A program made the translations under genes and the position numbers. This document shows, one piece after another, positions 31,359 to 49,840 of a DNA stretch of 64,000 bases; the first letter of the stretch is position 1; each line of letters opens with the position of its first letter. The DNA is from Candidatus Omnitrophota bacterium. Its GTDB lineage: Bacteria > Omnitrophota > Gorgyraeia > JAFGGP01. The notes under the pieces are model-generated. The model made no database searches. It was not told where the DNA came from and saw nothing but the letters and a program-made list of their open reading frames with translations. The stretch is taken from positions 2,745 through 66,744 of the forward strand of contig JAFGGP010000030.1 in NCBI GenBank assembly GCA_016930485.1, given 5' to 3'.

Positions 31359-32429
31359 ATGGTCGCTACGTTATTCGGTGGTTATACGCTCGGCATCGAC
31401 GGCTTTCGTGTCTCGGTAGAGGTGGATATCTCGGACGGACTCCCCTCAGTAACGGTTGTGGGACTTGCCAATACCGCGGTGAAAGAGGCCCGCGACCGGG
31501 TAAAGAGCGCTATTAAAAATAGCGGCTTTAAATATCCTGCCAGCAAGATCACCGTCAATCTGGCACCTGCCGATGTAAAAAAGGAAGGTGCCCTCTTCGA
31601 CCTGCCTATCGCCCTGGGAATTCTCATATCATCAAACCAGCTGAGGCCCTTCCGGGATATCGGCCGATACTTCCTGTTCGGTGAGTTGTCACTCGACGGA
31701 AGCATACGGCCGGTCAGGGGTATACTGCCTCTGGTGCTCTCCCTTAGCAAATACGGTAAAGCATTTATTCTCCCTGAACAAAATGTCGCCGAGGCAAGCA
31801 TAGCAAATAAGCTGGACATCCTTGGCGTGAAAAATCTGAAGGAAGTGGTTCTATTTTTAGAAAAGAAATCAGATATTCTTCCTCTACGGGTCAACCCTGA
31901 TGAGTCTGCCGCACGGCATCCGGCGACAGAAACTGATTTCTCCGAGATAAAGGGGCAACGATTTGTAAAACGGGCCCTTGAGGTTGCGGTGAGTGGCGGT
32001 CACAATATCCTGATGATCGGGCCGCCGGGAAGCGGCAAGACCATGCTCGCAAAACGTATCCCGACCATCCTGCCGCCTTTACCATACCCGGAGATGATCG
32101 AGACCACGAAGATTCACAGTATCTGCGGACTTCCGCACGCAACGCCCCTGGTGAGGAGTCGTCCTTTCAGGGCGCCGCATCATACTATCAGTGACGTAGC
32201 CATGGTAGGCGGTGGCAGTATTCCCCGCCCCGGAGAAGTGAGTCTGGCCCATAACGGGGTGCTCTTTCTGGATGAGCTGCCCGAATTCCCACGTCATGTA
32301 CTGGAGGCCCTGAGAGAGCCGCTTGAGGAAGGTGCGGTGCTTATCTCTCGTGCACACTCCAGCATACACTTTCCCGCGCAGTTTATGCTGGTTGGGGCGA
32401 TGAATCCCTGCCCCTGCGGCTCGGAATGA
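31359..32429 (+). pseudogene. comM: comM/yifB (Mg-chelatase-like AAA+ competence protein), 5' fragment truncated by insertion
   Basis: [29 protein letters not shown].., Walker [14 protein letters not shown], Walker [10 protein letters not shown]. The fragment ends NPCPCG-SE* at the element junction. Confidence 0.9.
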
Positions 32430-34065
32430 CAACAAAGTGGAATCTGTCTCTCTTCTTGGAAAGGTCAGAATCGAGGAATAACTGCACTTCTAGATGAAAT
32501 TTTCTCAACTTGCGGTCATAGTTAACAATAATCTGGTTAACCAAAGTCCTAAGCTTTTCCTGCTTTTCCTCATCAGTCAGATTCTTCCACATCTGGGGAA
32601 GATTGCATAAATCCTCAAAGCTAGTCTGCAAAGCAATCTCCTGTAAATTAATCTCTTCGCCCTGAGAGGCTAATTCAGCCATCCTGTCTCTTATGGAATC
32701 AATTCTCTTCTTGTTCTCATCAAACCTCTCAACGAAAGTAGTATCATCAATAACCTTGTTCTCAAGTTTCTCAAGTAAGGTATTCCTAACCTCAACCAGC
32801 CTTTTTTCTTCCTGAACAAGCCTTTTCTTCTCATCGTCAAAATCAGACTTAACAGGCTTTGACTGTTGCCTTATCTCCTTAAGCATTTTCTGTTTATCAT
32901 TCAAGAATTTCTCATTCTTTGAAAGCTCAAGCAATGTCCTCATAACCTGCTCTTCTAAAACATACCCCGGCACAACCAATCCTTTGCAGACACTTCTTCC
33001 TTTCTGTATTGAGTTCTGGCATCTGTAATAGAAATATTTTTTATCATATGTTTTTTTGAAATAAAGATACCCGAACATTCCGCCCTTGCAATGTCCGCAT
33101 CTGGCAAGGCCTGCAAGCAAATAACTTTTTTTTGCTTTACTGGGCTTCATGTATTTCTGTTTTAACAACGCCTGCACTCTCTCAAACATATCTTCAGGAA
33201 TAATCCCTTCATGTTCTCCCTTAAATATTTTCCAAAGTCTAGGCTCAACATTCTTCAGCTTGCCTGTTCCAAGATCAGTCTTTCTCTTGCCATACCAAAC
33301 CTTGCCTGAATATGTCGGGTTAGTGAGAATCCGTCTGATAGAGGTTGCGGCCCAGGACAAGCCCTCAGGAGTTTTAATCTCTCTTTTGTTCAATTCATGG
33401 GTAACTCTTCTAAGACTTTTGCATTCAAGATAAAGCCCATAGATTTTTTCAACCAGCTCAGCATCTTTCTTAACAAGATACAATCTGCCTTTTTCAGGGG
33501 CGATTTTGTTAGCCTCTTTTAATGCCTCATCCTCGCTTAATCCTTTCTCAAGAAGCTTTCTTACCAGCTTGCCCTTAGTAACATATCCTAGAGGCACAAC
33601 TCCACCTGTCCATTTTCCTGCTAATGCCCTATGGTGCATGTCCGCACTTACTCGTTCAGAATCAATCTCCCTTTCCAGCTGAGCGATAGAGCCAAGAAGA
33701 TTAATAATGAATCTTCCCATCGGCCCGGTAGTATCAATGCTCTCGGTAAGGGAAACAAGCTTAACATTATGCCTCTGCAATTTCTCCATCAACTCAATCA
33801 AATCTTTCAAAGAGCGAGTGATCCTATCTAATCTTGTAACAATAACAACCTGAATCCTGCCTGCTTCAATATCATTCATTAACTCCTCAAAAGCAGGGCG
33901 TTTAGTATCCTTTGCAGAAATACCTTCATCCTTGTAGGGCTTGTTCTTGTAAAGCTCAAAACCCTGAGCCTTGCAATATTGCCTTAACCGTTCTTCCTGT
34001 GTCCTTAGTGAATCCCTGTCAATCTGCTGTGTTGTTGAAACTCTTACATAAGCTCCTGCCTTCAT
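32383..34065 (-). CDS. Large serine recombinase (integrase)
   Basis: [20 protein letters not shown] (catalytic Ser), [13 protein letters not shown], recombinase domain GGVVPLGY, Zn-ribbon [16 protein letters not shown], then a coiled-coil. The start is set at MKAGAY (the track start 34113 is 16 codons upstream). The last ~8-12 codons lie beyond attL in comM-antisense sequence. Confidence 0.9.
32409..32434. other. attL of integrated element
   Basis: Core TGCCCCTGCGGCT (32409-32421) matches TGCCCGTGCGGCT at 49248-49260. The element-side arm is AATGACAACA (32425-32434). Confidence 0.8.
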
Positions 34066-34078
34066 CAAGAAATCCTTT

Positions 34079-34723
34079 CTAAGAATTTTTTCTTTGGGAT
34101 AACTCTTTTCCAAAAACCATCAACGCAGAATCAATTTCTTTTCTTGAGTATAATCTCCTATAGCGAGCATGAAGCGAATTAAAAAATCGGCTGTATGAAT
34201 CATAATAGCTATCTATTATTTTTTTGTTTAAAGACCCTTGCTGGATTCTCCCAGTTTTAAAATATTGAAATGCTCTGTATACATGTCGGTCAAAAAGAGG
34301 GAATTTCTCAGGATTACAGATATGACAGATAAAAAGCTGTATCACTGGCCCATTAGGAGAGATATATTTAAGGGTATCTTGAAAATCTTCTAATGACATC
34401 TGGCTTTTCTTGAAAAGGTTAATGTCATGCACTTTTTCAATGGCTCTTTTTATTAGCGACTGGTGTTTCTTGCTCAACTGCGCATATTTCCTTTTGCCTG
34501 CTAATTTCCAGCACAATATATCTCTTAATTTTGTGCTTATTAGCTGATGTGAATTAATTGCATCGAAATAAACTTGGAGATCATATTTTTCATTATCAAA
34601 TTGCCGTAAATACTCAAGCAATCCTATCTCAAACTTTTCTAGTCTTTTATTTATCATCTTAATAGTAGCAGGACTGATTTTTTTAAGGTTTCTAAACTCT
34701 TTATCTCTTTCCCCTATTTGCAT
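34079..34723 (-). CDS. Hypothetical protein
   Basis: 214-aa ORF co-oriented with the recombinase. No motif recognised with confidence. Confidence 0.5.
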   Translation of the reverse strand: MQIGERDKEFRNLKKISPATIKMINKRLEKFEIGLLEYLRQFDNEKYDLQVYFDAINSHQLISTKLRDILCWKLAGKRKYAQLSKKHQSLIKRAIEKVHDINLFKKSQMSLEDFQDTLKYISPNGPVIQLFICHICNPEKFPLFDRHVYRAFQYFKTGRIQQGSLNKKIIDSYYDSYSRFFNSLHARYRRLYSRKEIDSALMVFGKELSQRKNS

Positions 34724-34967
34724 CTTTAGGCCAGTAATACCTTACTTGTTTGGTAACCGCCAATTTCACCCCAATATCAAGAATTGATTTAAATGCCCGT
34801 GTTGCCGCTCTTTCGCTCAAGCCGCTTAACCTCGCCAGCTCTTCCAAATCAACCGCACTTCTCGGCGTTCCCTTCCTGGAAAGAAGAGCCATAAGAGAGC
34901 CAGCATCTTTGTCCAGTTTCGAAAGTTTAATATCCCAATCCTCCAACTCAGGCTTTTTCTTTTTCAC
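34701..34967 (-). CDS. Small wHTH-like protein
   Basis: 88 aa. SAVDLEELARLSGLSERAATRAFKSIL resembles a helix-turn-helix. Confidence 0.45.
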   Translation of the reverse strand: MKKKKPELEDWDIKLSKLDKDAGSLMALLSRKGTPRSAVDLEELARLSGLSERAATRAFKSILDIGVKLAVTKQVRYYWPKDANRGKR

Positions 34968-35256
34968 AAGCCGCTCCTTTCTGCATTAACTTATTCAAAT
35001 ATTTCAAATCAGCCTCAAGTAAAATATCAAGGACAGCATTAAGCCTTACAAACTCATCGCTGTTTTCTTTAATCTCGATTGTCCTGCAAGGCTGCATCTT
35101 TCTTGCCCTTCTCCATATCTCTTGCCTTTCAACTCCATAAATCCCGTTAGAATCAGCCCACTCACTAAAAAGAGGAAAAAGCTCTTTGCCTTCATTCTTA
35201 GAGGCATGATCCTTGAATGACACAACCTTTTCTTTATAGAAAGCTCTTTTATTCAT
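34948..35256 (-). CDS. Hypothetical protein
   Basis: 102-aa ORF overlapping its neighbour by 20 nt in the same operon-like block. Confidence 0.45.
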   Translation of the reverse strand: MNKRAFYKEKVVSFKDHASKNEGKELFPLFSEWADSNGIYGVERQEIWRRARKMQPCRTIEIKENSDEFVRLNAVLDILLEADLKYLNKLMQKGAACEKEKA

Positions 35257-35332
35257 GCTTCTCTATCTGTTTGTATTCTGTATCTTAATTATACAAAATA
35301 TAGAAAGATTGTCAAGAAAGAAATAGAAATGA

Positions 35333-35515
35333 TTAATCTTCAGATAGATATTTAATGCTCTTTAAGGATTCAAAAGGATAGTAATTAAACTTATATCCCT
35401 GATTATTTCCCTCTTCGTTTACTACTTCTTTTACTGCTCTGCATTCCTCATCTATATCTGCTTTCTCTACTGTTTTTGTTTGCTCGTCAATAAAAGTTAA
35501 TTCGTACCTTGCCAT
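35333..35515 (-). CDS. Hypothetical small protein
   Basis: 60-aa ORF from the track only. Confidence 0.3.
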   Translation of the reverse strand: MARYELTFIDEQTKTVEKADIDEECRAVKEVVNEEGNNQGYKFNYYPFESLKSIKYLSED

Positions 35516-35643
35516 TAAGTTTGAAGATAAAAAAGCCTTTTAAATATTATTATTAATAGGAAACTCTGTTTAATCCTTTTTATCACTCTCATTCAGTAGT
35601 AACAAATAGAAAGATTTATAAACTTCGTATCCTTATAAAAAGT

Positions 35644-36111
35644 ATGAGCCTTGATGAATTTTTGAAAGGAATAGAAGAGAACAGGAAGAAGGGCGAGGTA
35701 ATTATTTCAAGAAGAAAAATCCAGGAAATGCTCTCAGGCAAGATTGTTATTTATGAGTATATCAGCCCTGATGCGGAGAAATTAAGAGCTCAGTCTGCCC
35801 TTAAATTTGGACAAATCAAGCTCACTGGGAACAAGGCAAAAGATGATACTCTCTTATCTCTATATTCTGATGAAATAGTCCTCGAAACAAAAAAGGGATA
35901 TTACGGCGGCAGGCTCGATGCTTTTGATGGAAGTTATTTCCATCTTGGACAGCGTGTGTTTTCCGATAAGCCAATAGATTTTATTTCATACAGAAAGCAG
36001 CGTGGCACTAAAACCGAGATGGTTCCCGAGGATGAGGTTGTTACAATATACAAGATGCCTATAAAGAATACTGATGATTTTTATAGGACAAGGGTCAATC
36101 ACAAGAAGTGA
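35644..36111 (+). CDS. Hypothetical protein
   Basis: 155-aa ORF with no recognisable motif. Confidence 0.45.
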   Translation: MSLDEFLKGIEENRKKGEVIISRRKIQEMLSGKIVIYEYISPDAEKLRAQSALKFGQIKLTGNKAKDDTLLSLYSDEIVLETKKGYYGGRLDAFDGSYFHLGQRVFSDKPIDFISYRKQRGTKTEMVPEDEVVTIYKMPIKNTDDFYRTRVNHKK

Positions 36112-36113
36112 TT

Positions 36114-38126
36114 TTAAATAATCTTCAGAAACTCAGCGATAGAATAAATCTCTGCTTCACTGCTTAACCCTGCAAGCTCTTCAATTAATTTCTTCTTTGC
36201 ATTATTATCAAGGCAAACAAGCATAATCCTGTCGCATTTTCCCCGATCCTTAATCACATTAATATATTCGGTCTTAAAGGTGGAGATGCAGATTTCAACT
36301 GCAACCTTTTTTTCATCCTTGATATAAAACAAATCTATCTTCTTGCCCTCAAACTCCTTTTCAATCTCTACCTGCTTACAGCCCTTGTTTTTCAGGTAAT
36401 CAGCAAGGTAATGCTGTATAAAAACATGCAAAGAGCCCTTGCCGCCTGAATACTCCGGCTTTCTTGGTTTTTTAATAAGCCCATAACCCTTGTCAGTTAT
36501 CACAAAAAACTTTGACTGGCCGCCTCTTCCTGAAAGGTTGAGATAAACCGGCTCTGCAAGTTTCTCATTCTCAATATGCCTGTAAATCCTCTTCGCCTTC
36601 TCATTGCTTAAATGCAAATCAATAGCCCTGTCATTAGAGCTTACAAACTGCCTGTGAAAGATGTCATTCAATACATCTTTGATTTCATCAAGTTTTTCCT
36701 CGCTTTTTTCTTCCTCAGCTTCCTTCTTTTCAGCCTTATATGGCCTTCTCGGCTTTACAGCTTCAAGGATATAAACAAACCTGCTGTTGTTCTTTCTCTT
36801 ATCTTCCCTGCTTATTTCAAGCTCATCAATCTTTTCCATGCCGGGGATTTTATACATCTTGGAAAGGAAGGGGGCAGGGTATCGGGAAGAAAACTTGACA
36901 AGCATTTCCCTTTCTTCCTTGCTAATCAACCTGGCAAATTTTCTCTGCTCCTTGTCCTGCACGCCCATAGAATCAAGCATTCTGTTGGTATCATTTGAAT
37001 CAGAAAGAGTGAACATGATTTTTGTAGAGCTTGTGCCGAAAATGCCCTGCCCCATAAGAGAGGGGTACTGTCCGATCACTATCATGTTTATCTTGGCTTT
37101 CCTGACTTCTGCAAGATGATGGTTGATTATCGGCATTCCTCTATCTGGCCTCTTCTCAAAATTCGCATCAAACAAAAGCATGGCATCATCTATTATCAGG
37201 AAATGCCGCAGGTCAGTTTTATTATTCTCCTTGTAAGAAAAGAGCCATGAGATAAGGGCATTGACGATAAATACCTGCTGTGATGCCGGCAAACTTCCAA
37301 TATTAAAAATCACATTCTCATTGACTAATTCTTCAAGGCAGCCGGAAGAGCAATCCAAAGCACCCCTTACAGGCCCTTTTAATATGCCGCCGATTCTGTT
37401 TAATGCGGATTCAGCATAATGGAAGCTCCTGCTCATCTTCGGGAAATCCTTTGACTTTATGTAATCATGCAGTTCAAACAGGCTCGGCTTCACCCCGAAT
37501 TTATCATATTCAGAAGCAAGGTCATAAGACTGCTCAATCAAGAAATTCTTTGTGCCGTCATAAATTGCCTCTGCCTGAATAAACATATCCCAAAGGGAAG
37601 CATACCATTCATGCCTTGTTACATTCTTGGGCGGCTCCATCAGATTGAATTTCACCTGCTCGTCAAAATCAACGGTAATTATGTTTGCCTTCTTGTACAA
37701 TTTTACAAGCTTTTCCGTATCCTTTGCCTTCACAAAAAACCAGCATTTTATTCCTTGCGAAATCGCCTGAGGGGCAATAAAGAAATTTGCGATTGTTGTT
37801 TTGCCTGTGCCCGGCTCTCCTGCAATCAGGATATGAAGCTCTTCGGGCATAAAGCCGACAAACTGATTTTCTTCCGCAACGCCGAATTTTATTTCTCCGT
37901 CAGCTTCTTCTGAGGGGGAAGGGAAAGGATTTGTCCTTAGAGACTTCTCTACAAGGTATGGCTGGACAAGAAGCATCAAGAGGTTATAACTTTCATAATC
38001 AGAATTATCAGCCATAACGCAGTTAAGCAATGCGCTGATTTTACTGTCATCCTCAAGCCCTAAATCTTTTATCTGCTTGGCAAGTGCTAAAACCTGCCCT
38101 ATGTCTATCGGTCGCCCGGCTTGCAT
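36114..38126 (-). CDS. HerA/FtsK/TraG-superfamily P-loop NTPase fused to C-terminal wHTH + PD-(D/E)xK-like module
   Basis: Walker A IAGEPGTGKTT, Walker B HFLIIDDA, IVIGQYPS. The C-terminus is ..FFVITDKGYGLI..HVFIQHYLADYLKNKG..KIDLFYI..KVAVEICIS, similar to the 43029-43727 protein. Confidence 0.65.
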   Translation of the reverse strand: MQAGRPIDIGQVLALAKQIKDLGLEDDSKISALLNCVMADNSDYESYNLLMLLVQPYLVEKSLRTNPFPSPSEEADGEIKFGVAEENQFVGFMPEELHILIAGEPGTGKTTIANFFIAPQAISQGIKCWFFVKAKDTEKLVKLYKKANIITVDFDEQVKFNLMEPPKNVTRHEWYASLWDMFIQAEAIYDGTKNFLIEQSYDLASEYDKFGVKPSLFELHDYIKSKDFPKMSRSFHYAESALNRIGGILKGPVRGALDCSSGCLEELVNENVIFNIGSLPASQQVFIVNALISWLFSYKENNKTDLRHFLIIDDAMLLFDANFEKRPDRGMPIINHHLAEVRKAKINMIVIGQYPSLMGQGIFGTSSTKIMFTLSDSNDTNRMLDSMGVQDKEQRKFARLISKEEREMLVKFSSRYPAPFLSKMYKIPGMEKIDELEISREDKRKNNSRFVYILEAVKPRRPYKAEKKEAEEEKSEEKLDEIKDVLNDIFHRQFVSSNDRAIDLHLSNEKAKRIYRHIENEKLAEPVYLNLSGRGGQSKFFVITDKGYGLIKKPRKPEYSGGKGSLHVFIQHYLADYLKNKGCKQVEIEKEFEGKKIDLFYIKDEKKVAVEICISTFKTEYINVIKDRGKCDRIMLVCLDNNAKKKLIEELAGLSSEAEIYSIAEFLKII

Positions 38127-38623
38127 ATTATATTCCTGTCATGCAGATTGAAAATAGCCAACCATGCATTGACATTTATCTCCCTTGCATGTTTCTTGCA
38201 TAAATTCATATTGTTCACAACAAACCTGTAGCAGTCATCTCTGGGGCAAAGCTTCTGCATGCAGCCTTTCTTGGCACAGACAAGGTGTTCCTTCTCAACG
38301 CATGCCTTGCATGCTGTATGCCCGCACTCAGCCTGATGCCCGAAATTATCATGGGTTCTCGCATGGCCGCAGTCATACAGCCCTGAGCTGGTTACATGGT
38401 TATGGACAATGCCCCCGTCCTTGCCGAATTTTACCTCTTCTTCCTCTTCTGAAAGGATTAAATCACCTGATCCCAAAGAAAGTTTCTTTACTTTCCTTGT
38501 CTTCTTGATGCCCCTTGCCTTTGCATTCATCAATGTTTCAAGCTTTTTTCTCTGCGTTGGCTTCATCTTGGAAAGTATATCTGCTATCCCCTCAAGCATA
38601 TCATCTTCATTCAATTTAGCCAT
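38105..38623 (-). CDS. Cys/His-rich (zinc-binding) protein, overlaps ATPase start by 22 nt
   Basis: CGHARTHDNFGHQAECGHTACKACVEKEHLVCAKKGCMQKLCPRDDCYRF..CKKH. Confidence 0.5.
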   Translation of the reverse strand: MAKLNEDDMLEGIADILSKMKPTQRKKLETLMNAKARGIKKTRKVKKLSLGSGDLILSEEEEEVKFGKDGGIVHNHVTSSGLYDCGHARTHDNFGHQAECGHTACKACVEKEHLVCAKKGCMQKLCPRDDCYRFVVNNMNLCKKHAREINVNAWLAIFNLHDRNIICKPGDR

Positions 38624-38951
38624 TCCCTATCACCTCGCTTTCATGTATTTGCCAGTTATTCCTTTAATTTTACCACCCTGTTGGCGGATTACAAAGATAA
38701 TTATGAACAGAAAGGCAACAAATCCAAACTTCTGAAAGTTCAAAATCAAAAACAATGATTTGCTTTCGCTAATTGCTCTAACCTCAAATATAGAATAACT
38801 GACATCACTCTGTTCCTCTTCCTGAAAGTTGCCAATAAGCCCAATGGGTTCATTCTCTTCCTTATTCTCTTTGATTTTTCATTTAACACCACAGAGCTAG
38901 GCATTTAATTTTTTCTGCCAAGGGCAACCCGCCCCAGGATTAATCGGGTCA

Positions 38952-39167
38952 GTGAAAAAAATAAAAGCCGCTCTTTTGAGCAAGCTCAAGGTTATGAAAA
39001 ATCAAATTCACTTTATGGAAGAGAACGAAATACCTGAATGGCTTAATGGGCCGTTCATGAGCGAAGAGGAACAAGACGAAGCGATGTCTTCTTATCAGTA
39101 CATTATTGAAAGGAGGTTAGAGCAAAGACAAAATGAAAACTTTACAGCAAATCAAATCGGATTTTGA
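38952..39167 (+). CDS. Hypothetical small protein (first of four overlapping ORFs)
   Basis: ORF track; start/stop overlaps with the next ORFs, a phage-like operon layout. Confidence 0.4.
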   Translation: MKKIKAALLSKLKVMKNQIHFMEENEIPEWLNGPFMSEEEQDEAMSSYQYIIERRLEQRQNENFTANQIGF

Positions 39168-39471
39168 ACAGATACTTTCAGAAGTCCTGAGGATTAATGG
39201 AATATCTGTTGAATCGGCTGTCCAAGTGTCAACAGTGATACTACAGGAATCTGGCAAATACAACAGATGCCCTGAGATTAAGACAGAGAATGAAGATGAG
39301 TTTGTGTTTGCAACAGAAAGCCAGAAAAAAGCAATGAGAAACTTGAGGATAAGTTTCCCTGAAGAAATTGGCAAAACTGAGGCATCACAGCTCATCGAGA
39401 GCGCAGTTACAAAGCTTCGCAGTAACGGAAACGGCAGGGCTATTCCTGCCCGCTCTCCTTTCCAAAAATGA
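39133..39471 (+). CDS. Hypothetical protein
   Basis: 112-aa ORF in the same block. Confidence 0.4.
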   Translation: MKTLQQIKSDFEQILSEVLRINGISVESAVQVSTVILQESGKYNRCPEIKTENEDEFVFATESQKKAMRNLRISFPEEIGKTEASQLIESAVTKLRSNGNGRAIPARSPFQK

Positions 39472-39692
39472 AGCAGTACAAAAGAAAGGAGTTGCCCTAT
39501 GAGTGCATCATAGATGTAGAGTATATGCCTTTTCCCTCTGAGGAATCAAAGAGAGAGGCATACTACACTCATGCAAAGCTCTTTCTCAGGGCAAAGGAAA
39601 GAGAAGCCAGAGACAAATACAGCAAGCCAGTGAACATTGACAGCAGAGAGCAGGGCGGGCTTGCGGCCCTCTCCTCTTACTATATAAGATGA
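39468..39692 (+). CDS. Hypothetical protein
   Basis: 74-aa ORF with an ATGA-type overlap with its neighbours. Confidence 0.4.
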   Translation: MKQYKRKELPYECIIDVEYMPFPSEESKREAYYTHAKLFLRAKEREARDKYSKPVNIDSREQGGLAALSSYYIR

Positions 39693-40009
39693 CAGATGAC
39701 TTTTGGAAAGATGCAGAAATCATAGATGCTTATACAGATGAGCAGGCTGTTGATGATGGAATTGTAATTCCAGTCAGCTTTGGCATTATCAATAGGGTTA
39801 CAAGGCCAGTCTTTGATGACTTTGTTAAAGATGAGGAATGTGATCTTGCCAGATTCAATATCTTCATGGATAAAGCCATAGAGATTTTTGATTCAGTCAG
39901 GCAGAAGAAAGATGATTGGTTCTATAAGGTAGTCGTTGATGAAATTCCTTATTTCGTCTGTCAGAATGATACTGGATATTTCACATTAATGAAACCAGAG
40001 GACTACTAA
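39689..40009 (+). CDS. Hypothetical acidic protein
   Basis: 106-aa ORF, D/E-rich. Confidence 0.4.
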   Translation: MTDDFWKDAEIIDAYTDEQAVDDGIVIPVSFGIINRVTRPVFDDFVKDEECDLARFNIFMDKAIEIFDSVRQKKDDWFYKVVVDEIPYFVCQNDTGYFTLMKPEDY

Positions 40010-40032
40010 ATTTTTTTGTTTCCTCTTTAGCA

Positions 40033-40578
40033 TTATCCTCGGATTCCCGTCTTTTTCATTCTTCGATGAAATCTGCTGTTGTATTCCTCTTTGAACTTAG
40101 GCCCCAACTGAGATAAAGGAACTGTTAGGGGCTCCCCTCGCTCTGCCCTTGCCATATTTTCCTTAACAATATCTTTCTCTTTTGAACCATTCATTCCATC
40201 TATTTTCTCTAACATTTCTTCTTCTGCCTCATCAATTTCTTTCTCTGTTTCCCGCTCTTCTTCCAAAGCTTTATCTTTGCAATTAAAACAAGAAAGATAA
40301 TTTGCTTTGTGATATTTCTTTCGGCAGATATGACAAAGCTCCAAATTATGATGTATTGCAAAATGGCATTTCCTGCAAAGAACAATATTTTCTTGTTCCT
40401 TTAAGTCAACATATTGATCCTTTTTGTCATATGTTGATTCATCCAAATGATGAACCGTCAGAAATAGGCTTGAACCACACCACTCGCATTTTCCGCCTCT
40501 GGCTTTAATAAATTCGTCTCTTTTTTCCTTCCACTCCTTTCTGTTCCAAAGATTATGCAGTTCTTTTCTCTTTTCCAT
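40033..40578 (-). CDS. HNH-endonuclease-like protein
   Basis: CEWCGS..LTVHHLDE ... CRKCHFAIHH plus further CxxC pairs. Confidence 0.6.
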   Translation of the reverse strand: MEKRKELHNLWNRKEWKEKRDEFIKARGGKCEWCGSSLFLTVHHLDESTYDKKDQYVDLKEQENIVLCRKCHFAIHHNLELCHICRKKYHKANYLSCFNCKDKALEEERETEKEIDEAEEEMLEKIDGMNGSKEKDIVKENMARAERGEPLTVPLSQLGPKFKEEYNSRFHRRMKKTGIRG

Positions 40579-40798
40579 GTCTCGCTTCCCATTTATCCGC
40601 TGATTTGTTAAACCAAAAATATAACCCCCATATAAAAATAAGCCCCAAGCTTAGTGAAAAAATATCTTCTCCATTGATTCTTGAATTAATACTCAATTGG
40701 TTAAAAAGAAATAAAAAAGATATTAATATTGCAGACCAAACAGAGATCCTGAAAGGCTTATTCCACCATCTAATTTTCTTTGTCTCATTTTTATCCAT
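40553..40798 (-). CDS. Small membrane protein
   Basis: 81 aa with two hydrophobic helices (VWSAILISFLFLF, LSLGLIFIWGLYFWF). Confidence 0.4.
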   Translation of the reverse strand: MDKNETKKIRWWNKPFRISVWSAILISFLFLFNQLSINSRINGEDIFSLSLGLIFIWGLYFWFNKSADKWEARHGKEKRTA

Positions 40799-41029
40799 TT
40801 CAGATTAAAAGCTCTATATGATTTTAAATCTTTTGAAAATTAGCCTGCCCTTCGGTGCAGATATTAATAAGGTGTGCCCTCGGCTCTGGCTGGCTATTTA
40901 ATAGGGCACACACTGAAGCCCTAAAGCCCTAAAGCCCCGCTGAATGCCGCCCCTCATTTGATAATGAGCCTCTCCTATTCAGAAGGGCTTTCCCCTTTTT
41001 CGAAAGGGTCGGGCTTGTTTCTTTGCTTG

Positions 41030-41365
41030 TTTTTGATGAGATTGAGATGTGGTTAGTTATTGAGATTGCTATGCAGGTATTTTTAGATTGCAAATGTTCT
41101 TTTAATTTAGTCAGGTTCAGTTTAGGTTAATGAGTGAGCAGGTGAGCTCTTTGTATTCAGTTAGTTAGAAGGATATATCACCTCTTTTACGAGATGTTTT
41201 CTTGTGTTTTGTATTTCAGTTTCAGTTATAGAGTTTTAGTTTCCGTTTCCGTGCGTGTTATTTGATTCTTTGATGTAAGTTGTTGATTTATAGAGTGTTA
41301 GTTTTGTTTCTTGTATATAGAAATATATAATGGAAACAGAGAAACAGAAACGAACAGGGGGTATT
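41030..41365. repeat. Iteron-like repeat cluster in 720-bp non-coding region of the element
   Basis: GAGATTG x3 (+TAGATTG); TTCAGTT x5; GTTTCC GTTTCC opposed by GGAAACAGAGAAACAGAAAC; an AT-rich core tatatagaaatatataa. Confidence 0.5.
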
Positions 41366-41530
41366 TGGCTATTGGCTTTCCCCCCACATATCTTTATCCA
41401 AAGGTAAAGAACCCCGGATTTACGGGTATTTTCGCATTTCTGAGGCGTTTAGAAGGTAAATACGCGGGGAGAATAACTGGAATACCCCCAAGGGGTAAAT
41501 ACCGGATATTATACTTATTATACCTATTTT

Positions 41531-42796
41531 TTAGGGGGTGTTTTGTTTCTGGAAGTATAATTCCATTAATTTCTTGCCTAAGCCTTCCTTTAAAGCTGAT
41601 CCAATAAGTGCTTCTTGCAGGGAAAGGTCTTTTCTTAACAAATCTGCAAGGATACTTTCAAAGCCGCCCTTCTTTTCATCAAGCGCAATGGCAGTTTTAA
41701 CATCTAAAACACTGCCGCATTTCTTGCAGAATAAATGATCCTTCGGGTTTATGTCATTGCACCTGGGGCATTGTTTTATCTTTGGCTCTTGTTTTTCTGT
41801 CTCTTCTTTCTTGAAACCATGAATTTCAAGCATGACATCATTAACATCTCTTGAAACTAAATGTGAATATTCGGAAAGCATGTTGCTTGAAGGAACCCAG
41901 CCAAAATAAACTTTAGCCTGTGATTCATTTATCTGCTTGTTGATAAGCAAATGAGTAACCCTTGTATGCCTGAACAGATGGGGATAAATTCTCTTCTTTA
42001 TTTTTGCTTTCTCTTTCAGCCTTAAAACTAATGCTCTGAAAGCCGCATATTTCATTCTTTGATTTTTGTTTCTATTCCCAAGCATAACCCATAAAGGCGC
42101 ACTTGGATCGTTTTTTAACGGATGAGAATTAAGCCATGTAGTTAAATAAGAATCAGAAACTACTATTCTCGGAGTTCTATGCCCTGTCTTTCCGCTTAAG
42201 TCAATGATGAAGCTGTAATTATCCCTTGATATATCGCCTATGCTTATTTTCCCTATCTCTCCTATTCTTGCGCCCAATTCATAGAGCATGCCGACGAATG
42301 CTTTATCTCTTGGGTTCTCTGCAACCTCAATCAATTTATCAATTTCTCTTTCAGTTAAGATATCAGAGGCATTCACTCTAGGTTTTTCCTTTTCTGAAAC
42401 ACTTACCCTCATCCAGCTAATTATTTCTGGTTGTTCCTGTCTTTCAAGGTAGCCATCCCCGAACACATGCCATCTGTAGAATTTCTTGAGAATAGTTTTG
42501 TAGCTATGCCTTGTCCATACCGAATAATCCTCTCTGCCATCAATCTTTAACACAGCCTGCTTTAATTGATCCTTCGTGGCCTTGTCAAAATCAATTTTTA
42601 TGTAATCCCTTGCAAGAATAATCAAATAGCTTATTATCTTTGTTTTTCTCGATATGCTTAATCTTTCAAGGCTGCATGCTTCATCAAACTTGAAAATCAA
42701 ATCTTTATTTGCCTGAGAAATCTCGGCTTTTTGCAGATGTTCTTTTGCCCTTGTATACTGCAAATCATGCCCGTAAATATCTTTTTTGGGATTCAT
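41531..42796 (-). CDS. Tyrosine recombinase/integrase with C-terminal zinc ribbon
   Basis: ELGARIGEI (Arg), HLFRHTRVTHLL (HxxR), SEYSHL (Tyr), CPRCNDINPKDHLFCKKCG. Confidence 0.8.
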   Translation of the reverse strand: MNPKKDIYGHDLQYTRAKEHLQKAEISQANKDLIFKFDEACSLERLSISRKTKIISYLIILARDYIKIDFDKATKDQLKQAVLKIDGREDYSVWTRHSYKTILKKFYRWHVFGDGYLERQEQPEIISWMRVSVSEKEKPRVNASDILTEREIDKLIEVAENPRDKAFVGMLYELGARIGEIGKISIGDISRDNYSFIIDLSGKTGHRTPRIVVSDSYLTTWLNSHPLKNDPSAPLWVMLGNRNKNQRMKYAAFRALVLRLKEKAKIKKRIYPHLFRHTRVTHLLINKQINESQAKVYFGWVPSSNMLSEYSHLVSRDVNDVMLEIHGFKKEETEKQEPKIKQCPRCNDINPKDHLFCKKCGSVLDVKTAIALDEKKGGFESILADLLRKDLSLQEALIGSALKEGLGKKLMELYFQKQNTP

Positions 42797-43028
42797 ACAA
42801 ATAGTACGAGAGCCGTGCTACTATTTAAAGCTTTCGACATATACTACTTGTTTACAGCCTCAGACATGCTTATAACGACTTGTTCATGTCGTGGGCTTTG
42901 ACATGTTTAAGTCTTTTTTGATTTTATACTTCAAATCCGAAGTGTAAAGGGCGACGAATTGCTTTACCCAATCAGGTAAATGAGCATTCAAATCTTTTAA
43001 ATATTTCTCCTGAATCTGTGTCTTGCTT

Positions 43029-43727
43029 TCATGATATTCCATTTTCCCCATCATCTCTTTTTGGGGTTTTTGTTGATACGTCGAATTTAAAAGCCAGAAT
43101 CATCTTTACATTTTTTCCAAACTCATTATCCTTCAGGTCTTCTGATATCCTGTGTTGTGCGGTTCCGTTGGTTGGAACACAAATCACCGAATCAAATCCA
43201 GAATAAAGATTTCTCCTTATGTTCTTCAGGTGATTTGAATTTCCTGTTTCTATCTCAACAGCTATCCTGTTCTTGCCTTTCCTTATCGCAATATCGGCGT
43301 TATCTTCCTCGATTGAAACATGATAGCCCTGTTTTTCATAATATTCGGCAATTTTCAGTTTCCAGAATTTATGCTCAATGCTTTCATTGAAGGTATTAAC
43401 ATGATAGCCGCTTCTTCCTAAAATACCGGCGCCCTTAGGCGTTATCTCAAATAATACAATCCATCCCGATTTTGTGATAATTCTCTTAGGAATGATAAAG
43501 CCGTGTGAAATCCATAGTTCTTTCCATTTGTTTCCTGTTTTCGGGTTTACGCCGAGCCTTTTATACCTATCAACAACTGTTGAAATAGGGTGGTTCACTA
43601 TGTCAATCATAAAAAGGCATTCCCTTGATCCCGGCAATTCCCCCTCGTCTAAACTATCCTCATATTTCATTTCTCCCTCGTCCTTATTTGAAAATAGTAA
43701 TCCTGTAGTATTTAAGCGTTGTATCAA
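43029..43727 (-). CDS. wHTH + PD-(D/E)xK-like nuclease-fold protein
   Basis: ..IVLFEITPKGAGILG..HKFWKLKIAEYYEKQGYHVSIEEDNADIAIRKGKNRIAVEIETGNS.. A paralogous unit of the ATPase C-terminus. Confidence 0.55.
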   Translation of the reverse strand: MIQRLNTTGLLFSNKDEGEMKYEDSLDEGELPGSRECLFMIDIVNHPISTVVDRYKRLGVNPKTGNKWKELWISHGFIIPKRIITKSGWIVLFEITPKGAGILGRSGYHVNTFNESIEHKFWKLKIAEYYEKQGYHVSIEEDNADIAIRKGKNRIAVEIETGNSNHLKNIRRNLYSGFDSVICVPTNGTAQHRISEDLKDNEFGKNVKMILAFKFDVSTKTPKRDDGENGIS

Positions 43728-44002
43728 GATAGGCGAAGTTTTTAAGCGTTGTACAAGGATGCGGAGGAAGAAATTTAAAAGGGTTGTTTAAGGATAAGAG
43801 AAAGGAATTGCTAAAAGGAAAGAATTTCCCAATCCTTGCCTAAATTCCTTTCATCAAAAGAATATTTTTCAGAATGATTATATCTGAAACTTCCATCTTT
43901 AAAGATAACTATACCACCCCCATAACTTTTTTCCCTTTTTTAAATTTGTACGGTTAAACAGAAAATGCGGGTGGAGAGAATGCAAAATTGAATATTCTAT
44001 CT

Positions 44003-45199
44003 TTATTCTTCGTCAATACCTTCAGCCATCATCTTGCCAACCTTATTTTTTTGCTCAAGAAGATGGCGAGGGAGGAAAAATATATTTGCGATTAAGGTAG
44101 GAATGACAGCGCTTGCTATAACTGTTGCCACGAGAAATGAATATTGTTGCAGCGTTACGATGCCATGCGAATATCCGTAGAGAGCTGAAATCGTGCCAAA
44201 GGTAAGCCCTGTTGACATCAAAAGCGTGTAATACCATTTTTCTCTTTTCTCTTTACGGAAAATGCCGATAATCGGATAAAGCCCGAATATCTTTGATATT
44301 ACCTTGCCGATAAAAAGCATCAAGAATACAAATGGTGCGCTTATCAAAGCGGCAATTGAAACAAGCGAGCCAGCTCGAATAAAGTAAAACGGCGTAAGAA
44401 AACCTACAGTTAATGTCCTCAATCTCCTCACCCAATGATGCTCCTTAGATGCAAACTCTGCAAGCAGCATACCTGCAATGTATGCTGGCAATACCGCCTC
44501 GCTTCCTGACCAAAGAGCAAGCGCCCCGAGACCAAAAAGCACAAATATCACCCACTTTGCCCTAATTGCGGCTGTCCTGTTCCCATAAACCCTTGTGAGA
44601 AACGAAGTCATGACAGGAAATAATCCAAGTATGATAATGCTGCCGACAACAAAAATTATAGTCTTATACGTAAAAGGGGCAAAAATTAAACCCAAAGCAA
44701 GCACAGTTCCAAGGTCATTGATAAAGCAGGCGCCTAATATGCCTTTGCCAAATTCGGTTTTATTAAACCCCATTTCAAGCATGACAGCATAAACAACTGC
44801 CATAGATGTTGTTGAAAGAGCAATGCCCGCAAGCCAGCTTGCCTGAGTGCCCCAATGAAGAATAAATCTAGCGAAAGCAGTGCACCCCAAAAACGGCGCA
44901 AGAAAACCAACAACCCCCACCACTACAACCTCTTTCCATTTTGAGCGAATCACTTTTGGGTCAAGTTCTGCGCCTGCTAAAAAAGTAAGCAGCATCGCTC
45001 CGGTTGCAGCCAGAAATTTAAGCCACTCGAGATCGCTTCCAAAGACATTCGGCCCAAAAAAGTGGCTGACGACATTTGCGACAATAACGCCCATGCATAT
45101 CTCAACAAGCGCAATTGAAATTCTGAGATGATGTGCAATAATCGCAGAAATTACAGCCAGCCCAAGCCACGCCGTGGCGATTAAATAAAATAGTTCCAT
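44003..45199 (-). CDS. Cation/H+ antiporter (Na+/H+ exchanger family)
   Basis: 398 aa with ~11 TM helices; sequence typical of the CPA-type Na_H_Exchanger fold (..LAATGAMLLTFLAGAELD..). Confidence 0.75.
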   Translation of the reverse strand: MELFYLIATAWLGLAVISAIIAHHLRISIALVEICMGVIVANVVSHFFGPNVFGSDLEWLKFLAATGAMLLTFLAGAELDPKVIRSKWKEVVVVGVVGFLAPFLGCTAFARFILHWGTQASWLAGIALSTTSMAVVYAVMLEMGFNKTEFGKGILGACFINDLGTVLALGLIFAPFTYKTIIFVVGSIIILGLFPVMTSFLTRVYGNRTAAIRAKWVIFVLFGLGALALWSGSEAVLPAYIAGMLLAEFASKEHHWVRRLRTLTVGFLTPFYFIRAGSLVSIAALISAPFVFLMLFIGKVISKIFGLYPIIGIFRKEKREKWYYTLLMSTGLTFGTISALYGYSHGIVTLQQYSFLVATVIASAVIPTLIANIFFLPRHLLEQKNKVGKMMAEGIDEE

Positions 45200-45210
45200 A
45201 CTTTAAAACC

Positions 45211-46503
<1,293 letters not shown>

Positions 46504-46520
46504 TCATCTTAAATTTAAAT

Positions 46521-47240
46521 TTATCTATTGATAAATAATGAAAAGGCGGCAACTACAAGCACAATATCCACAAAATAACCAAACGCCTTGCTGGACATAT
46601 TTTTAATAAACCTTCTTGCCGTCCATGAACCAGCCACCATCGCTAATCCTAAAATCACTCCTGTAATAAAATCCTGCATCGTCAGCAGGGCATAACTGCC
46701 ATAAACCACAGTTTTCGTAAGATGCATTACAACGGCTGTAACAGCTTCGCTTGCGACATAAGCTGTGGGAGTAAGATTAAGGCTCAAAAATGCAACAGCA
46801 CCTATTGGCCCGGCACTGCCTAAAACAGCAGACAAAAACCCGACTAACGCTCCAAAAGGAATAAACCATTTTTCTGCGATAGTATACTTTATATTAAGGT
46901 GCCGGAGAAGCACGATTACAAACAGAAATATTCCGATTGCCTTCATAATCAGCCCTGAAGGCAATTCAACAAACATTCTAGATCCTAGAACAGCCGCGGG
47001 CAGAGCCCCGATACAAAAATAAATAACTGGCTTCCACTTAATCTCTTTATACCCAAACCCCGCGCGTGAAAGATTGCCCATCATCCAAGCTATTGTAAGA
47101 ATAGGGATTGCCTTCTTGGCTCCTACAAGAAAAGAGAAAACCGGCAATATGATAAGGGAGCCGCCAAAACCAGCTACGCCGGAAATAGTTGCTGCCAGCC
47201 AACTGATAAATAACAGCATCGACCAAATTGCTGTTGTCAT
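46521..47240 (-). CDS. TauE/SafE-family anion exporter
   Basis: 239 aa, ~7 TM, G-rich helices (GVAGFGGSLIILP; LGSAGPIG). Confidence 0.7.
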   Translation of the reverse strand: MTTAIWSMLLFISWLAATISGVAGFGGSLIILPVFSFLVGAKKAIPILTIAWMMGNLSRAGFGYKEIKWKPVIYFCIGALPAAVLGSRMFVELPSGLIMKAIGIFLFVIVLLRHLNIKYTIAEKWFIPFGALVGFLSAVLGSAGPIGAVAFLSLNLTPTAYVASEAVTAVVMHLTKTVVYGSYALLTMQDFITGVILGLAMVAGSWTARRFIKNMSSKAFGYFVDIVLVVAAFSLFINR

Positions 47241-47281
47241 AAAATTCGCTCCCCAAGAATTTTTTCTTTTTTCCTCATATG

Positions 47282-47941
47282 CTAAAACATTCCTCCTTTG
47301 CCTTCCAATTTTTCAATCGCCCTGATCCATGAATCTCCTTCCTTGCCAAAACCTTCCTTGGAAAACCGGTAATCATGCTTTCTCTGAAATTCATTCAGTT
47401 CAGCAATCAAGCCTGATATCTTTTCTGACTCAATTGCTATTATCTCCTCAATCGCTTTCCTGTTTTTAAATTTATTGATAGTTGTTAATAAATGGGGGAT
47501 ACAGAAACCGAAAGAATTTTTATAGTGATACTTTAATTCAGAATCAATTAAATTCTCAATAAAAACAGAAACATAGCGGTTTTCGACATCTTTCTCCTGC
47601 CTGCAGAACATGCAATTATTTTTTAGCTTCCTGGTTTTATTCAAGTCCTTAATTACCGCAGGCAGGTCATCTGTCTTTCCTAATTTTTTGTTAATAAGCT
47701 GTGCTAAATCCTCATACACAATGCTTATGCCAAAGCCGTCTCCGAATTTCTGTAATTGCCAGACATGGCGATTGCAAAAGCCGTATGATTCCCTGATTTC
47801 TTTTCTCAATCCCGGATCGTTTACGCTTTCATATAAAAAGTCATCCATAAATTTATGCGTGCTCTTTCTGATCAAAGAACAGACAAGGCACCCCTTTTCT
47901 TTTATGGCGTCCAGCAAGTTATAATACGGCGTGTGTTTCAT
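47282..47941 (-). CDS. Cys-rich hypothetical protein (duplicated CxxC ... GFCxxH unit)
   Basis: GCLVCSL...YGFCNRHVWQL and NCMFCRQ...FGFCIPHLL. Confidence 0.55.
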   Translation of the reverse strand: MKHTPYYNLLDAIKEKGCLVCSLIRKSTHKFMDDFLYESVNDPGLRKEIRESYGFCNRHVWQLQKFGDGFGISIVYEDLAQLINKKLGKTDDLPAVIKDLNKTRKLKNNCMFCRQEKDVENRYVSVFIENLIDSELKYHYKNSFGFCIPHLLTTINKFKNRKAIEEIIAIESEKISGLIAELNEFQRKHDYRFSKEGFGKEGDSWIRAIEKLEGKGGMF

Positions 47942-48288
47942 GTCTCTATAACAAAAAAGCCTCTATCTTCTTTAAGTAGAGGATTATATAAAAACACCTC
48001 TACCATTTTTTAGTAGAGGTTATCAACCTTTAGTTCTGAGGTGGTTTTTAAAAAGGGCGAACCTCATCGCCTTTAATCCTTATTAGTTAAGATACCATAA
48101 ATTCATGAAAAGGCAAGTTAAATGTGCATGGAGGTATAAAAGAATACGGGACACTAAGAAAATTGAAAATCATGAACAAATAAAGAACAAAAAAATATAA
48201 ATACGCCAATAACGATATCGTTTGGGCAATGAGGTCTGCCCAGGTTAATCCCGAACCGCCTCAGGCTAATGACTTCTAAGGGATTAAT

Positions 48289-48516
48289 ATGATTGCAACA
48301 TTACAACAATACATGGTAATTCTCATTCTACCCTCTCTTGTTTTCGGCATTCCCTTCTGGATAATGATATTTATTGCGACATATGTGCCTTTCCCAAGGA
48401 TGGAGAAAGCAGATAGATTAAAGATGAGTGTTAGTAATGCTACAATTCTCACATTATTGATGCTTTTGATATCTTATCTGTTTTTAGTGCTGCTTTTCGA
48501 ATACATACTAAAATGA
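48289..48516 (+). CDS. Small membrane protein
   Basis: 75 aa with three hydrophobic helices. Confidence 0.4.
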   Translation: MIATLQQYMVILILPSLVFGIPFWIMIFIATYVPFPRMEKADRLKMSVSNATILTLLMLLISYLFLVLLFEYILK

Positions 48517-48929
48517 GGCGCTCAAGACATGTCGACAAAGGGCTGCTGAAATTTTTCATGCACAGCAACAGCCTGAATGACTTGCTGGAGATTCTTAACA
48601 ATATCTGCGGGCAATTGGACTTGAATTATTTAAACCCGAGATTAAGGCATTTCAAATATTTCCAGTTTACCTTCTTCGGCTTGATGTTAAGGGCAAGAGG
48701 GCTGCTGGAAATTATGCTTTTCAGGCTGGAACCGATTGAAAACAATTTCTCTGAATTCAAGAAGATAAGAGTAGAGCTCCTGAATTTAAGGAAGAATGTG
48801 CAAATCGCAGACAACTTCATAAAAGAAAAAAAGATGAGGGAAGGGAGAGATAAGGTAATTGAGGTTGCTGAAGAATACTCAAAAATCTTTGAAGATATAA
48901 ATAAGTTATTGGACAAATATATACCATAG
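48513..48929 (+). CDS. Hypothetical protein
   Basis: 138-aa ORF overlapping the previous stop (ATGA). Confidence 0.4.
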   Translation: MRRSRHVDKGLLKFFMHSNSLNDLLEILNNICGQLDLNYLNPRLRHFKYFQFTFFGLMLRARGLLEIMLFRLEPIENNFSEFKKIRVELLNLRKNVQIADNFIKEKKMREGRDKVIEVAEEYSKIFEDINKLLDKYIP

Positions 48930-48975
48930 TCCGCATCTTTGAAATCTTATGCTTTATGTGTCCTAAGAACAGAGT

Positions 48976-49188
48976 CTAACAGGAACTATTCAAGAATTCC
49001 TGCACCCTGTTAAAATTTCTGCCCACAGGCTTTCTCCCCCTCACTTCCCAATTTATCACAGTATCCTCGGTAACCCCAAGTTGTGCCGCAAGCTCCTTGA
49101 TCATCAAACCCCTGTCCATCCTTGCTTTCCTTATCCTCTCGCCCAAATTCTTAGGATTTTGGGGGTAATCAGGGTCAAAATCATTCAA
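48976..49188 (-). CDS. XRE-family HTH protein (frame stays open upstream through attR)
   Basis: LGERIRKARMDRGLMIKELAAQLGVTEDTVINWE. The annotated start is TTG. The same frame has no stop up to 49275. Confidence 0.65.
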   Translation of the reverse strand: MNDFDPDYPQNPKNLGERIRKARMDRGLMIKELAAQLGVTEDTVINWEVRGRKPVGRNFNRVQEFLNSSC

Positions 49189-49223
49189 ATTAAGGCTTAA
49201 TTCAAGGTTATAGACAAGAGGAA

Positions 49224-49260
49224 TGTTGTCATTGTGTACATCAGGGATGCCCGTGCGGCT
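49224..49260. other. attR of integrated element
   Basis: Element-side arm TGTTGTCATT (49224-49233) and core TGCCCGTGCGGCT (49248-49260). Confidence 0.8.
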
Positions 49261-49724
49261 ACTTTGCCTCCTCCCTCAGGGAGTGTCGTTGTTCCGTAAC
49301 GGCGATTGAAAAATACCGCGCCCGCATATCAGGGCCTCTTCTTGACAGGATTGACATCCATATCGAGACACCGGCCCTTGCCTACAAGGAACTTGCAGGT
49401 TCTGATGAGGAGGAGGCCTCGTGTACCATACGCGGTCGAGTAGTTGCTGTGCGGGAAGTACAGATGGGACGTTTCAAGAAAACCGGCATTTTTTGTAACG
49501 CCCACATGAAGATATCCGAGATAAAGAAACACTGCGGTCTTGAGCCGGCGGCCGGGCGGCTCCTAAAGATGGCAATAGCAGAGCTGGGAATCAGCGCGCG
49601 GGCCTACCACCGGATACTGAAGGTGGCGCGGACAGTGGCCGATATGGATGGGTCGGACCGCATCGAAGAAAGCCACGTAGCAGAGGCTATACAGTACAGA
49701 AGTCTGGATAGGCGGTTGTGGTAA
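49250..49724 (+). pseudogene. comM: comM/yifB 3' fragment
   Basis: ..CGYFASSLRECRCSVTAIEKYRARISGPLLDRIDIHIETP...ARAYHRILKVARTVADMDG..HVAEAIQYRSLDRRLW*. In frame with the 5' fragment; the total is 509 codons when joined. Confidence 0.9.
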
Positions 49725-49803: not shown

Positions 49804-49840
49804 TAGGTCACATTTAAGTGTGACCTAGGTTGTGGATAAA
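49804..49840 (+). repeat. REP-like palindromic element, copy 2
   Basis: taGGTCACATTTAAGTGTGACCtaggttgtggataaa, immediately 5' of the RAYT gene. Confidence 0.85.

Follow-up and report, generated by a model that had tools for sequence, protein, structure and literature searches.

How did a single comM gene come to lie in two pieces 16.8 kb apart, which enzyme put the intervening DNA there, and what does the insertion do to that enzyme? We addressed these questions in a 64,000-nt stretch of DNA (hereafter the window) from Candidatus Omnitrophota bacterium (GCA_016930485.1, contig JAFGGP010000030.1, contig positions 2,745-66,744, forward strand), which derives from a metagenome-assembled genome (MAG). 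Here comM/yifB is interrupted by an integrated element of ~16,839 bp with a large serine recombinase (LSR) gene at one end. We consider one explanation of the whole locus likely: the LSR element sits in comM, its own attachment site attP lies within a gene that fuses the LSR to a helix-turn-helix (HTH) domain, the recombinase is made as different isoforms according to the state of the element, and the element carries a fluoride-riboswitch cargo.

Joining the two junctions restores an intact comM

The 5' fragment of comM/yifB (31359..32429, plus strand) encodes ChlI and Mg_chelatase domains, runs to the motif NPCPCG and ends after two element-encoded codons (SE) with a stop at 32427-32429. The 356-aa product is identical to a protein annotated by NCBI as YifB family (P0378; P and L numbers denote proteins and loci in our collection). 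The 3' fragment (49250..49724, plus strand) holds Mg_chelatase_C and picks up in frame at 49250 with CGYFASSLRECRC...ISGPLLDRIDIH.... A preliminary description of this stretch, made from the letters alone, had placed the split at exactly these positions, and every coordinate was correct. It had further claimed that joining across a 13-bp repeat gives back an uninterrupted ComM, and had named colinearity with intact homologues as the check. When 31359..32421 was joined to 49261..49724, the frame was open for 508 codons from the Met at 31359, or for 542 codons from the first upstream ATG. The joined protein matched TIGR00368 in one stretch, with residues 10-501 on profile positions 6-499 of 499 (633.8 bits, cutoff 362.4), and spanned 100% of more than 100 intact homologues (508-513 aa) at 55-59% identity. 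The junction was gap-free in an alignment with 41 intact homologues, and NPCPCG was invariant in all 42 aligned sequences. Both the restoration and the colinearity thus held. The GC content is 0.36-0.43 between the junctions versus ~0.50 outside.

The 13-bp imperfect direct repeat, the shared core, reads TGCCCCTGCGGCT at 32409-32421 and TGCCCGTGCGGCT at 49248-49260, with one C/G mismatch. The left site, attL (32385..32434), consists of the host B half-site, TG at 32409-32410 and the element P' half-site with its arm AATGACAACA at 32425-32434. The right site, attR (49224..49273), consists of the element P half-site with its arm TGTTGTCATT at 49224-49233, TG at 49248-49249 and the host B' half-site. 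The two arms are perfect 10-bp reverse complements of each other. Motif counts in the window were compared with the expectation from shuffled sequence: repeat and arm are each confined to the two junctions, and the shuffles expect 0.01 occurrences of the repeat and 0.16 of the arm. The attB and attP of the window element are known by in silico joining of its two junctions.

The LSR gene (32383..34065, minus strand; 560 aa in the integrated form) abuts attL. Domains were called with Pfam, NCBIfam/TIGR and PHROGs. The protein contains a Resolvase domain (PF00239, E 2.6e-42, ORF residues 21-168; ORF, open reading frame), a Recombinase domain (PF07508, E 3.1e-25) and a Zn_ribbon_recom domain (PF13408, E 7.3e-12), so that the 16.8-kb serine-recombinase element of the preliminary description is borne out by an intact enzyme next to attL. 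Residues Y6, R8, S10 and R81/R84 are invariant across 16 LSR relatives, S10 being the catalytic serine, and the window protein is 100% identical to that of a Candidatus Omnitrophica MAG (P0001). In the AlphaFold model of a homologue (P0050), zinc-ribbon strands and two long helices occupy residues 383-485. All canonical domains are encoded upstream of the junction, while the last LSR codons and the stop (32383-32385) are read from antisense comM, the stop being the antisense of conserved F-M codons. As a separate observation, the host-encoded tails of integrated LSRs (32383-32421, minus strand, in the window; also L001, L014-L018 and P0064) recurrently end in ...PQPA, ...KPA, ...LQPA, ...RQA or ...RPA before the stop; these ...PA and ...QA ends correspond to no recognised tag.

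The attachment site lies within an LSR-HTH gene

In the reconstructed attP of the window element, the LSR frame meets no stop in the P arm or in a ~40-codon linker and runs on into the ORF of an XRE-type HTH, yielding a protein of 642 aa. The linker and HTH segment (48976..49247, minus strand) is the 3' part of the LSR gene in the excised form and is detached in the integrated form, where the HTH is annotated as a 70-aa regulator at 48976-49188. Reconstruction of attP for two related elements gave the same arrangement, with in-frame LSR-HTH proteins of 640 aa (L002+L029) and 642 aa (L030+L031). Five natural genes in the attP form are likewise LSR-HTH fusions, namely P0019 (718 aa), P0066 (702), P0092 (628), P0098 (618) and P0050 (632), and all five contain the att core GCACGG(G/A)CA within the ORF. 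The core falls in two different reading frames among the fusion genes and is therefore conserved as a DNA site, not as a peptide.

One of these genes was found on a free circle. Three contigs, L006, L007 and L008 (ENA ERZ27254759, ERZ27254756 and ERZ27254836), are permutations of one 10,509-bp circle; the contigs encoding P0098 are 10,650 bp long and have 141-bp terminal overlaps, with 0-1 mismatches between permutations. The 618-aa LSR-HTH of the circle is 36-38% identical to the window LSR, and eight data blocks yielded contigs of 10-20 kb, with contigs of similar size to the circle coming from several assemblies. The permuted contigs are direct evidence of a free circle that encodes an LSR-HTH fusion. 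Side by side with this, the 10,509-bp circle showed no recognisable replication or virion genes.

The AlphaFold model of P0050 (mean predicted local distance difference test score, pLDDT, 86) consists of a canonical LSR, a segment at residues 527-548 with pLDDT <50, a short strand and a four-helix HTH. The att-encoded residues map to the segment of low confidence, which places the att core in a linker predicted to be disordered, at a domain boundary. Against NCBIfam, the C-terminal part of the reconstructed 642-aa fusion gave weak matches to the HTH family of Wmk, the male-killing protein of Wolbachia phage WO (E 4.8e-4), and to the DicA repressor (E 6.3e-5). Linker codons were also compared pairwise between three close relatives: in two of the three comparisons, synonymous changes made up a larger share in the fusion frame than in the other two frames.

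Could the read-through be incidental, so that an ordinary LSR element merely has an independent cI/Xre-like regulator beside attP and the fusion has no role? The databases contain about 100 HTH proteins of 50-150 aa that are encoded by ORFs of their own, the window HTH has an in-frame ATG preceded by a purine-rich stretch (by our reading of the sequence), and phage WO carries separate HTH_XRE genes at the prophage end opposite the LSR sr1WO. However, the standalone ORFs represent integrated copies whose N-termini are read from host antisense DNA, and the internal Met of the HTH segment is not conserved, being L, I or M. The linker of ~40-60 codons is open in 8/8 cases at LSR identities of 36-86%, although the DNA is AT-rich and chance stops should be frequent. 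The more distant LSRs P0133 and P0142 also finish in one or two HTH domains. We regard an incidental read-through as unlikely, since none of the eight cases has an interrupted frame, over this range of identity and in AT-rich DNA. The placement of attP within an LSR-HTH gene is a robust finding at the level of sequence and probably an undescribed one: in the literature searched, coverage of which was incomplete, we found no description of attP within the ORF of a serine recombinase.

TG is the best-supported exchange point

The arms of the reconstructed window attP are 30 nt apart. An unbiased symmetry scan, in which 26 mirrored positions were scored, put the best dyad centre between the T and the G of 49248-49249 (16-17/26). 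The arms cover positions 16-25 from this centre, which gives an attP of ~50 bp, a size typical of LSRs. The repeat, the inverted arms with their spacing and the symmetry centre on TG had all been read in the preliminary description and were reproduced here. The first Cys codon of NPCPCG begins with this TG, which cannot vary as long as the Cys is retained. The attP cores of the window and of L003, L004, L005, L006 and L010 have GCACGG(G/A)CA in common (GCGCGGGCA in L003), which is the antisense of the comM codons TGY-CCG-TGC. In all six of these attPs the best dyad centre is CA, that is TG on the window plus strand, with 13-17 of the 26 mirrored positions pairing, and the attR of L013 is near-palindromic about the same TG.

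The preliminary description had gone further and proposed TG as the central crossover dinucleotide. This part stands less firmly. The attB is asymmetric about TG, with 6/20 mirrored positions pairing, and of its two halves B' resembles P' while B does not resemble P. The C/G mismatch fits a crossover on either side of itself, and its sense in the window is the reverse of that in two elements of metagenome sample 3300035179, so that it cannot place the crossover. Strand exchange elsewhere in the 13-bp core, 3' of the mismatch on the plus strand, would suit the asymmetric attB as well as the G found at the mismatch position (plus strand) in 5/5 natural attPs and in the window attR copy, which adjoins the P arm. 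On the other hand, the dyad centre lies exactly on TG in every attP scanned and in the L013 site, a crossover at TG makes the window attP the more symmetric one (17/26 vs 16/26), and with such a crossover both elements of sample 3300035179 receive the common attP base. We therefore hold an exchange 3' of the mismatch to be improbable and take TG as the best-supported exchange point, though not a proven one.

Related elements occupy the same codons

The NPCPCG codons are also the insertion point of related LSR elements in no fewer than 12 other assemblies, which come from Omnitrophota and Desulfobacterota. In L001, L002/L029, L030/L031, L011, L014-L018 and L022, the 3' end of the LSR gene runs up against antisense comM at residues ~352-359; in L001, whose LSR is 85% identical to that of the window, the gene overlaps truncated comM by 47 nt. 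Among the 18 genome loci retrieved with an LSR profile, L011, L014, L015, L016, L017, L018 and L022 abut antisense comM, at LSR identities down to 36%. Their hosts belong to Omnitrophota, Desulfatiglandales, Desulfobacteraceae, Desulfamplus and Desulfobacterales. By our own reading, antisense comM also encodes the tails of P0017, P0061 and P0064, KFIQKQDPVV of P0061 being the antisense of NGVLFLDEF. An element bounded by both comM halves is available for the window, L002/L029 (~38 kb) and L030/L031 (28 kb), and nine more loci give one-sided evidence. An invariant TG in the Cys codon of an invariant motif would explain how one LSR clade holds the same target across phyla.

Several further arrangements were seen at this site. 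In JGI sample 3300035179, two elements with different cargo (Ga0373630_0001251 and _0002317) lie at the same host comM allele; the contigs of this sample finish 81-90 bp outside the att sites, which fits branching of the assembly graph caused by population heterogeneity. A sister LSR lineage (L012 11480-11720, L013 4640-4900 and P0128) uses the same comM site in the opposite orientation, so that the LSR reads into the 3' part of comM. In P0128 the LSR ORF runs in frame through the whole C-terminal domain of ComM, giving a chimeric LSR-ComM(C) ORF.

Is the window element still able to move, or is it a fixed remnant that no longer excises and has inactivated comM permanently? A remnant would be consistent with the facts that the attP and attB of the window element come from reconstruction alone, that the small ORFs of the element yielded no recombination directionality factor, and that the comM fragments have no close intact relative. 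Yet the LSR is full length with invariant catalytic residues, both comM halves are open and join without a lesion, and the arms are perfect 10-mers. Moreover, related elements occur as free circles, and in one sample a single comM allele is found with two different elements; both observations indicate that the family is currently mobile. A fixed remnant is accordingly rather improbable in our judgement.

The element also encodes a Xer-like tyrosine recombinase with a C-terminal zinc ribbon (41531-42796, minus strand), which might have inserted it in place of the LSR. The Phage_integrase domain of this protein is intact, and tyrosine recombinases occupy a similar backbone position in L002 (510-1760) and L031 (2885-4078); in a tblastx comparison the window enzyme gave no match to that of L002. 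Its gene, however, is 7.5 kb from either element end, and the junctions are LSR-like, with a ~50-bp attP, a short core and none of the long tRNA-like identity. Across distant elements it is the LSR alone that co-varies with the comM junction, and the 10.5-kb circle has no called gene bearing a Phage_integrase domain. The best family match is of the Xer type, which suits multimer resolution, and the enzyme may plausibly resolve multimers of the circular form. We rejected it as the integrase on its position and on the co-variation of the junction, and consider such a role very improbable. A chimeric assembly with artefactual junctions is of negligible probability: the source is a MAG and contigs of related elements do break close to the att sites, but the same arrangement is seen again in no fewer than 12 independent assemblies, some with contigs of several megabases (L014, 6.5 Mb; L018, 4.6 Mb), which excludes such an artefact, and joining the halves gives back an invariant motif without a base too many or too few.

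Backbone, cargo and neighbourhood

Between the LSR gene and the cargo lies a backbone (34079..43727, minus strand) of small ORFs and five called genes, partly common to L001 and L002. Besides the tyrosine recombinase, the minus strand encodes a HerA/FtsK-like ATPase of 670 aa (36114-38126), a Cys-rich protein of 172 aa (38105-38623), an HNH endonuclease (40033-40578) and a 232-aa protein (43029-43727). Protein identity to L001 and L002 is 84-86% for the LSR and ~82% for the ATPase. The ATPase gave weak matches to the P-loops of CedD, FtsK and TrwB, and among solved structures just a weak KaiC-like P-loop match. A PHROGs scan of ten backbone proteins returned weak terminase/FtsK (for the ATPase) and HNH matches and no phage structural genes, and no relaxase was found in the element. 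In cultured phages (INPHARED), plasmids and IMG/VR viral contigs we found no close relatives, and no LSR relative exceeded about 30-40% identity; the best phage and plasmid LSR matches were <30% identical. A prophage was rejected, no virion gene being recognised. Because no virion protein and no close LSR relative in phages, plasmids or viral contigs were found, we regard the element, on its gene content, as an integrative plasmid-like element and not a prophage.

The cargo is an operon (44003..47941, minus strand) that reads, from its leader, DUF6062 (47282-47941), a TauE-like permease (46521-47240), enolase (45211-46485) and a CPA2 Na+/H+-type antiporter (44003-45199), all on the minus strand. 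RNAs were called with Rfam against its gathering score. The leader is a fluoride riboswitch aptamer (48007-48080, minus strand; RF01734, 46.3 bits, gathering 34), overlapped by a terminator hairpin (47996-48020, minus strand) that was called as a terminator-like site; tandem hairpins were also seen in this leader. A second, divergent fluoride riboswitch (48216-48285, plus strand; RF01734, 38.7 bits, gathering 34) precedes two plus-strand ORFs (48289-48516 and 48513-48929), for which no Pfam or PHROG match was found. Genes for enolase and for Na+/H+ antiporters are typical members of the fluoride regulon (PMC11139923); the element lacks a CrcB or CLC-F exporter. The cargo of relatives differs and includes restriction-modification, ParB and SMC-like genes. 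A mobile fluoride-riboswitch operon would be a small ecological bonus.

Outside the element, an IS200/IS605-type Y1 transposase ORF (PF01797) is located at 49832-50410 (plus strand), ~100 bp past the comM stop. The GC content is likewise low (0.38-0.39) at 50-53 kb of the window, and a 102-bp tandem repeat (1.9 copies, 85% matches) lies at 52607-52803 within a 655-aa ORF (51122-53089). At 1-24800 of the window, ORFs of at least 110 aa are nearly all short and on the plus strand, with just two reaching 200 aa; this region may be a ribosomal-protein-type cluster or another element.

A model for state-dependent isoforms

These results support a model in which the LSR recombined a ~50-bp attP with the NPCPCG codons of the host, most probably crossing over at TG. 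Integration would truncate ComM, and precise excision would restore it. The free circle would encode the LSR-HTH fusion of ~640 aa, with attP in a disordered linker between the LSR body and the XRE-type HTH, and integration would part the two to opposite ends of the element. The integrated copy would then make the 560-aa LSR with a short antisense-comM tail and leave the HTH segment behind attR. As far as the reading frames demonstrate, the circular form must translate LSR and HTH as one protein, and integration necessarily separates the two parts. Since attP lies inside the LSR ORF, integration would switch the enzyme between two isoforms.

We infer that the two isoforms differ in activity. 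In the version that we prefer, the tethered HTH would act in the free state only, either in autoregulation or as an additional tether to DNA close to attP, and recombination itself would reset the behaviour of the recombinase, so that the integration state feeds back on the enzyme. A more far-reaching version is tentative, and we think it possible but doubtful: the placement of attP would be a built-in switch of directionality and state, in which the LSR-HTH of the free circle is integration-competent, self-targeting or self-repressing, whereas the tail-less LSR of the integrated copy, possibly together with free HTH, acts differently and no separate directionality factor is needed.

Several observations weigh against the model or limit it, beyond the asymmetric attB, the ambivalent mismatch, the dependence on reconstructed sites and the lack of a directionality factor among the small ORFs, all described above. 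The closest intact ComM is just 59% identical to the joined ComM; this was also the best match when a conspecific empty site was sought among ComM homologues, and attB was thus not directly readable. The search for operator-like repeated palindromes for the HTH within the element returned nothing convincing. A scan for a promoter-like site for independent HTH expression at attR found none, using the sigma-70 consensus only, which may not fit Omnitrophota. Finally, most standalone HTH ORFs in the databases start in host antisense DNA, and the HTH may therefore also be made alone after integration.

The consequences reach beyond this locus. An attP inside the integrase ORF, described as archaeal and specific to tyrosine recombinases, would be extended to bacterial serine recombinases, and in a non-suicidal form. 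The model offers a testable, factor-free route to the control of LSR directionality, a control that is central to the use of LSRs as genome-engineering tools. There is also a practical warning for this clade: a protein predicted from an integrated copy is a truncated one with a tail encoded by the host, and a screen that clones such an ORF would not be testing the native enzyme. If the switch version were true, LSRs harvested from integrated copies would not be the native integrating enzymes, and bacterial serine recombinases would have their own counterpart of the archaeal self-splitting integrases.

Comparison with known systems

Insertion of an LSR element into comM is ordinary, documented biology; what is new here is the host phylum and the clade. 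Durrant et al. 2022 (PMC10083194) report Mg-chelatase/ComM homologues as the most frequent target, hit by 12.4% of the site-specific LSRs that they predicted, and an enrichment of competence genes among the targets. The preliminary description had called comM a hot-spot for other element types. This is right for the AbaR islands (PMC11472951) and understates the case, since by the Durrant paper comM is not just a site for others but the top LSR target. The Durrant LSRs resemble the present one in that an LSR-borne element lies within a coding sequence of the ComM/Mg-chelatase family. They were predicted from isolate genomes, whereas the present clade comes from uncultured Omnitrophota and Desulfobacterota, and in the passages searched the paper describes neither an attP within the LSR ORF nor a C-terminal HTH. 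The Tn7-like AbaR/AbGRI islands of Acinetobacter, along with other mobile elements there (PMC11472951), share the Mg-chelatase domain of comM as a recurrent target and the expected loss of transformation-associated recombination, but the islands move by Tn7-like transposition and differ from the window element in host and cargo.

Another parallel is sr1WO of Wolbachia phage WO, an LSR that integrates in a host magnesium chelatase gene (PMC9203015; bioRxiv 10.1101/2021.11.04.467296). There the LSR is found at one prophage end and single-domain HTH_XRE genes at the other, a layout echoed by the window element; WO, however, is a tailed phage, whereas no virion genes were found in the window element.

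Two other systems place attP within a gene whose product depends on integration. In the mycobacteriophages with integration-dependent immunity (Broussard 2013, as described in PMC8092301), attP is in a regulatory gene and C-terminal isoforms follow the state of the phage; the gene in question encodes a repressor and is distinct from that of the integrase, which is a tyrosine recombinase, and the mechanism works through ssrA-like degradation tags. In the window element, by contrast, the HTH is fused to the recombinase itself, attP separates the HTH from the recombinase ORF, and no degradation tag is shown. The SSV-type 'suicidal' integrases of archaea (PMC7253208) have a similar gene architecture: attP lies in their own ORF, the att site is translated, and the gene is split to opposite ends of the element. 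These enzymes belong to the tyrosine recombinases, lose their activity through the split and, according to the same article, occur only in archaea. The window enzyme, unlike them, is a bacterial serine recombinase that is split at a domain boundary and keeps all its catalytic and DNA-binding domains. The integrated LSR part is intact in many genomes, with all LSR domains retained, and integration would not leave two inactive pseudogenes.

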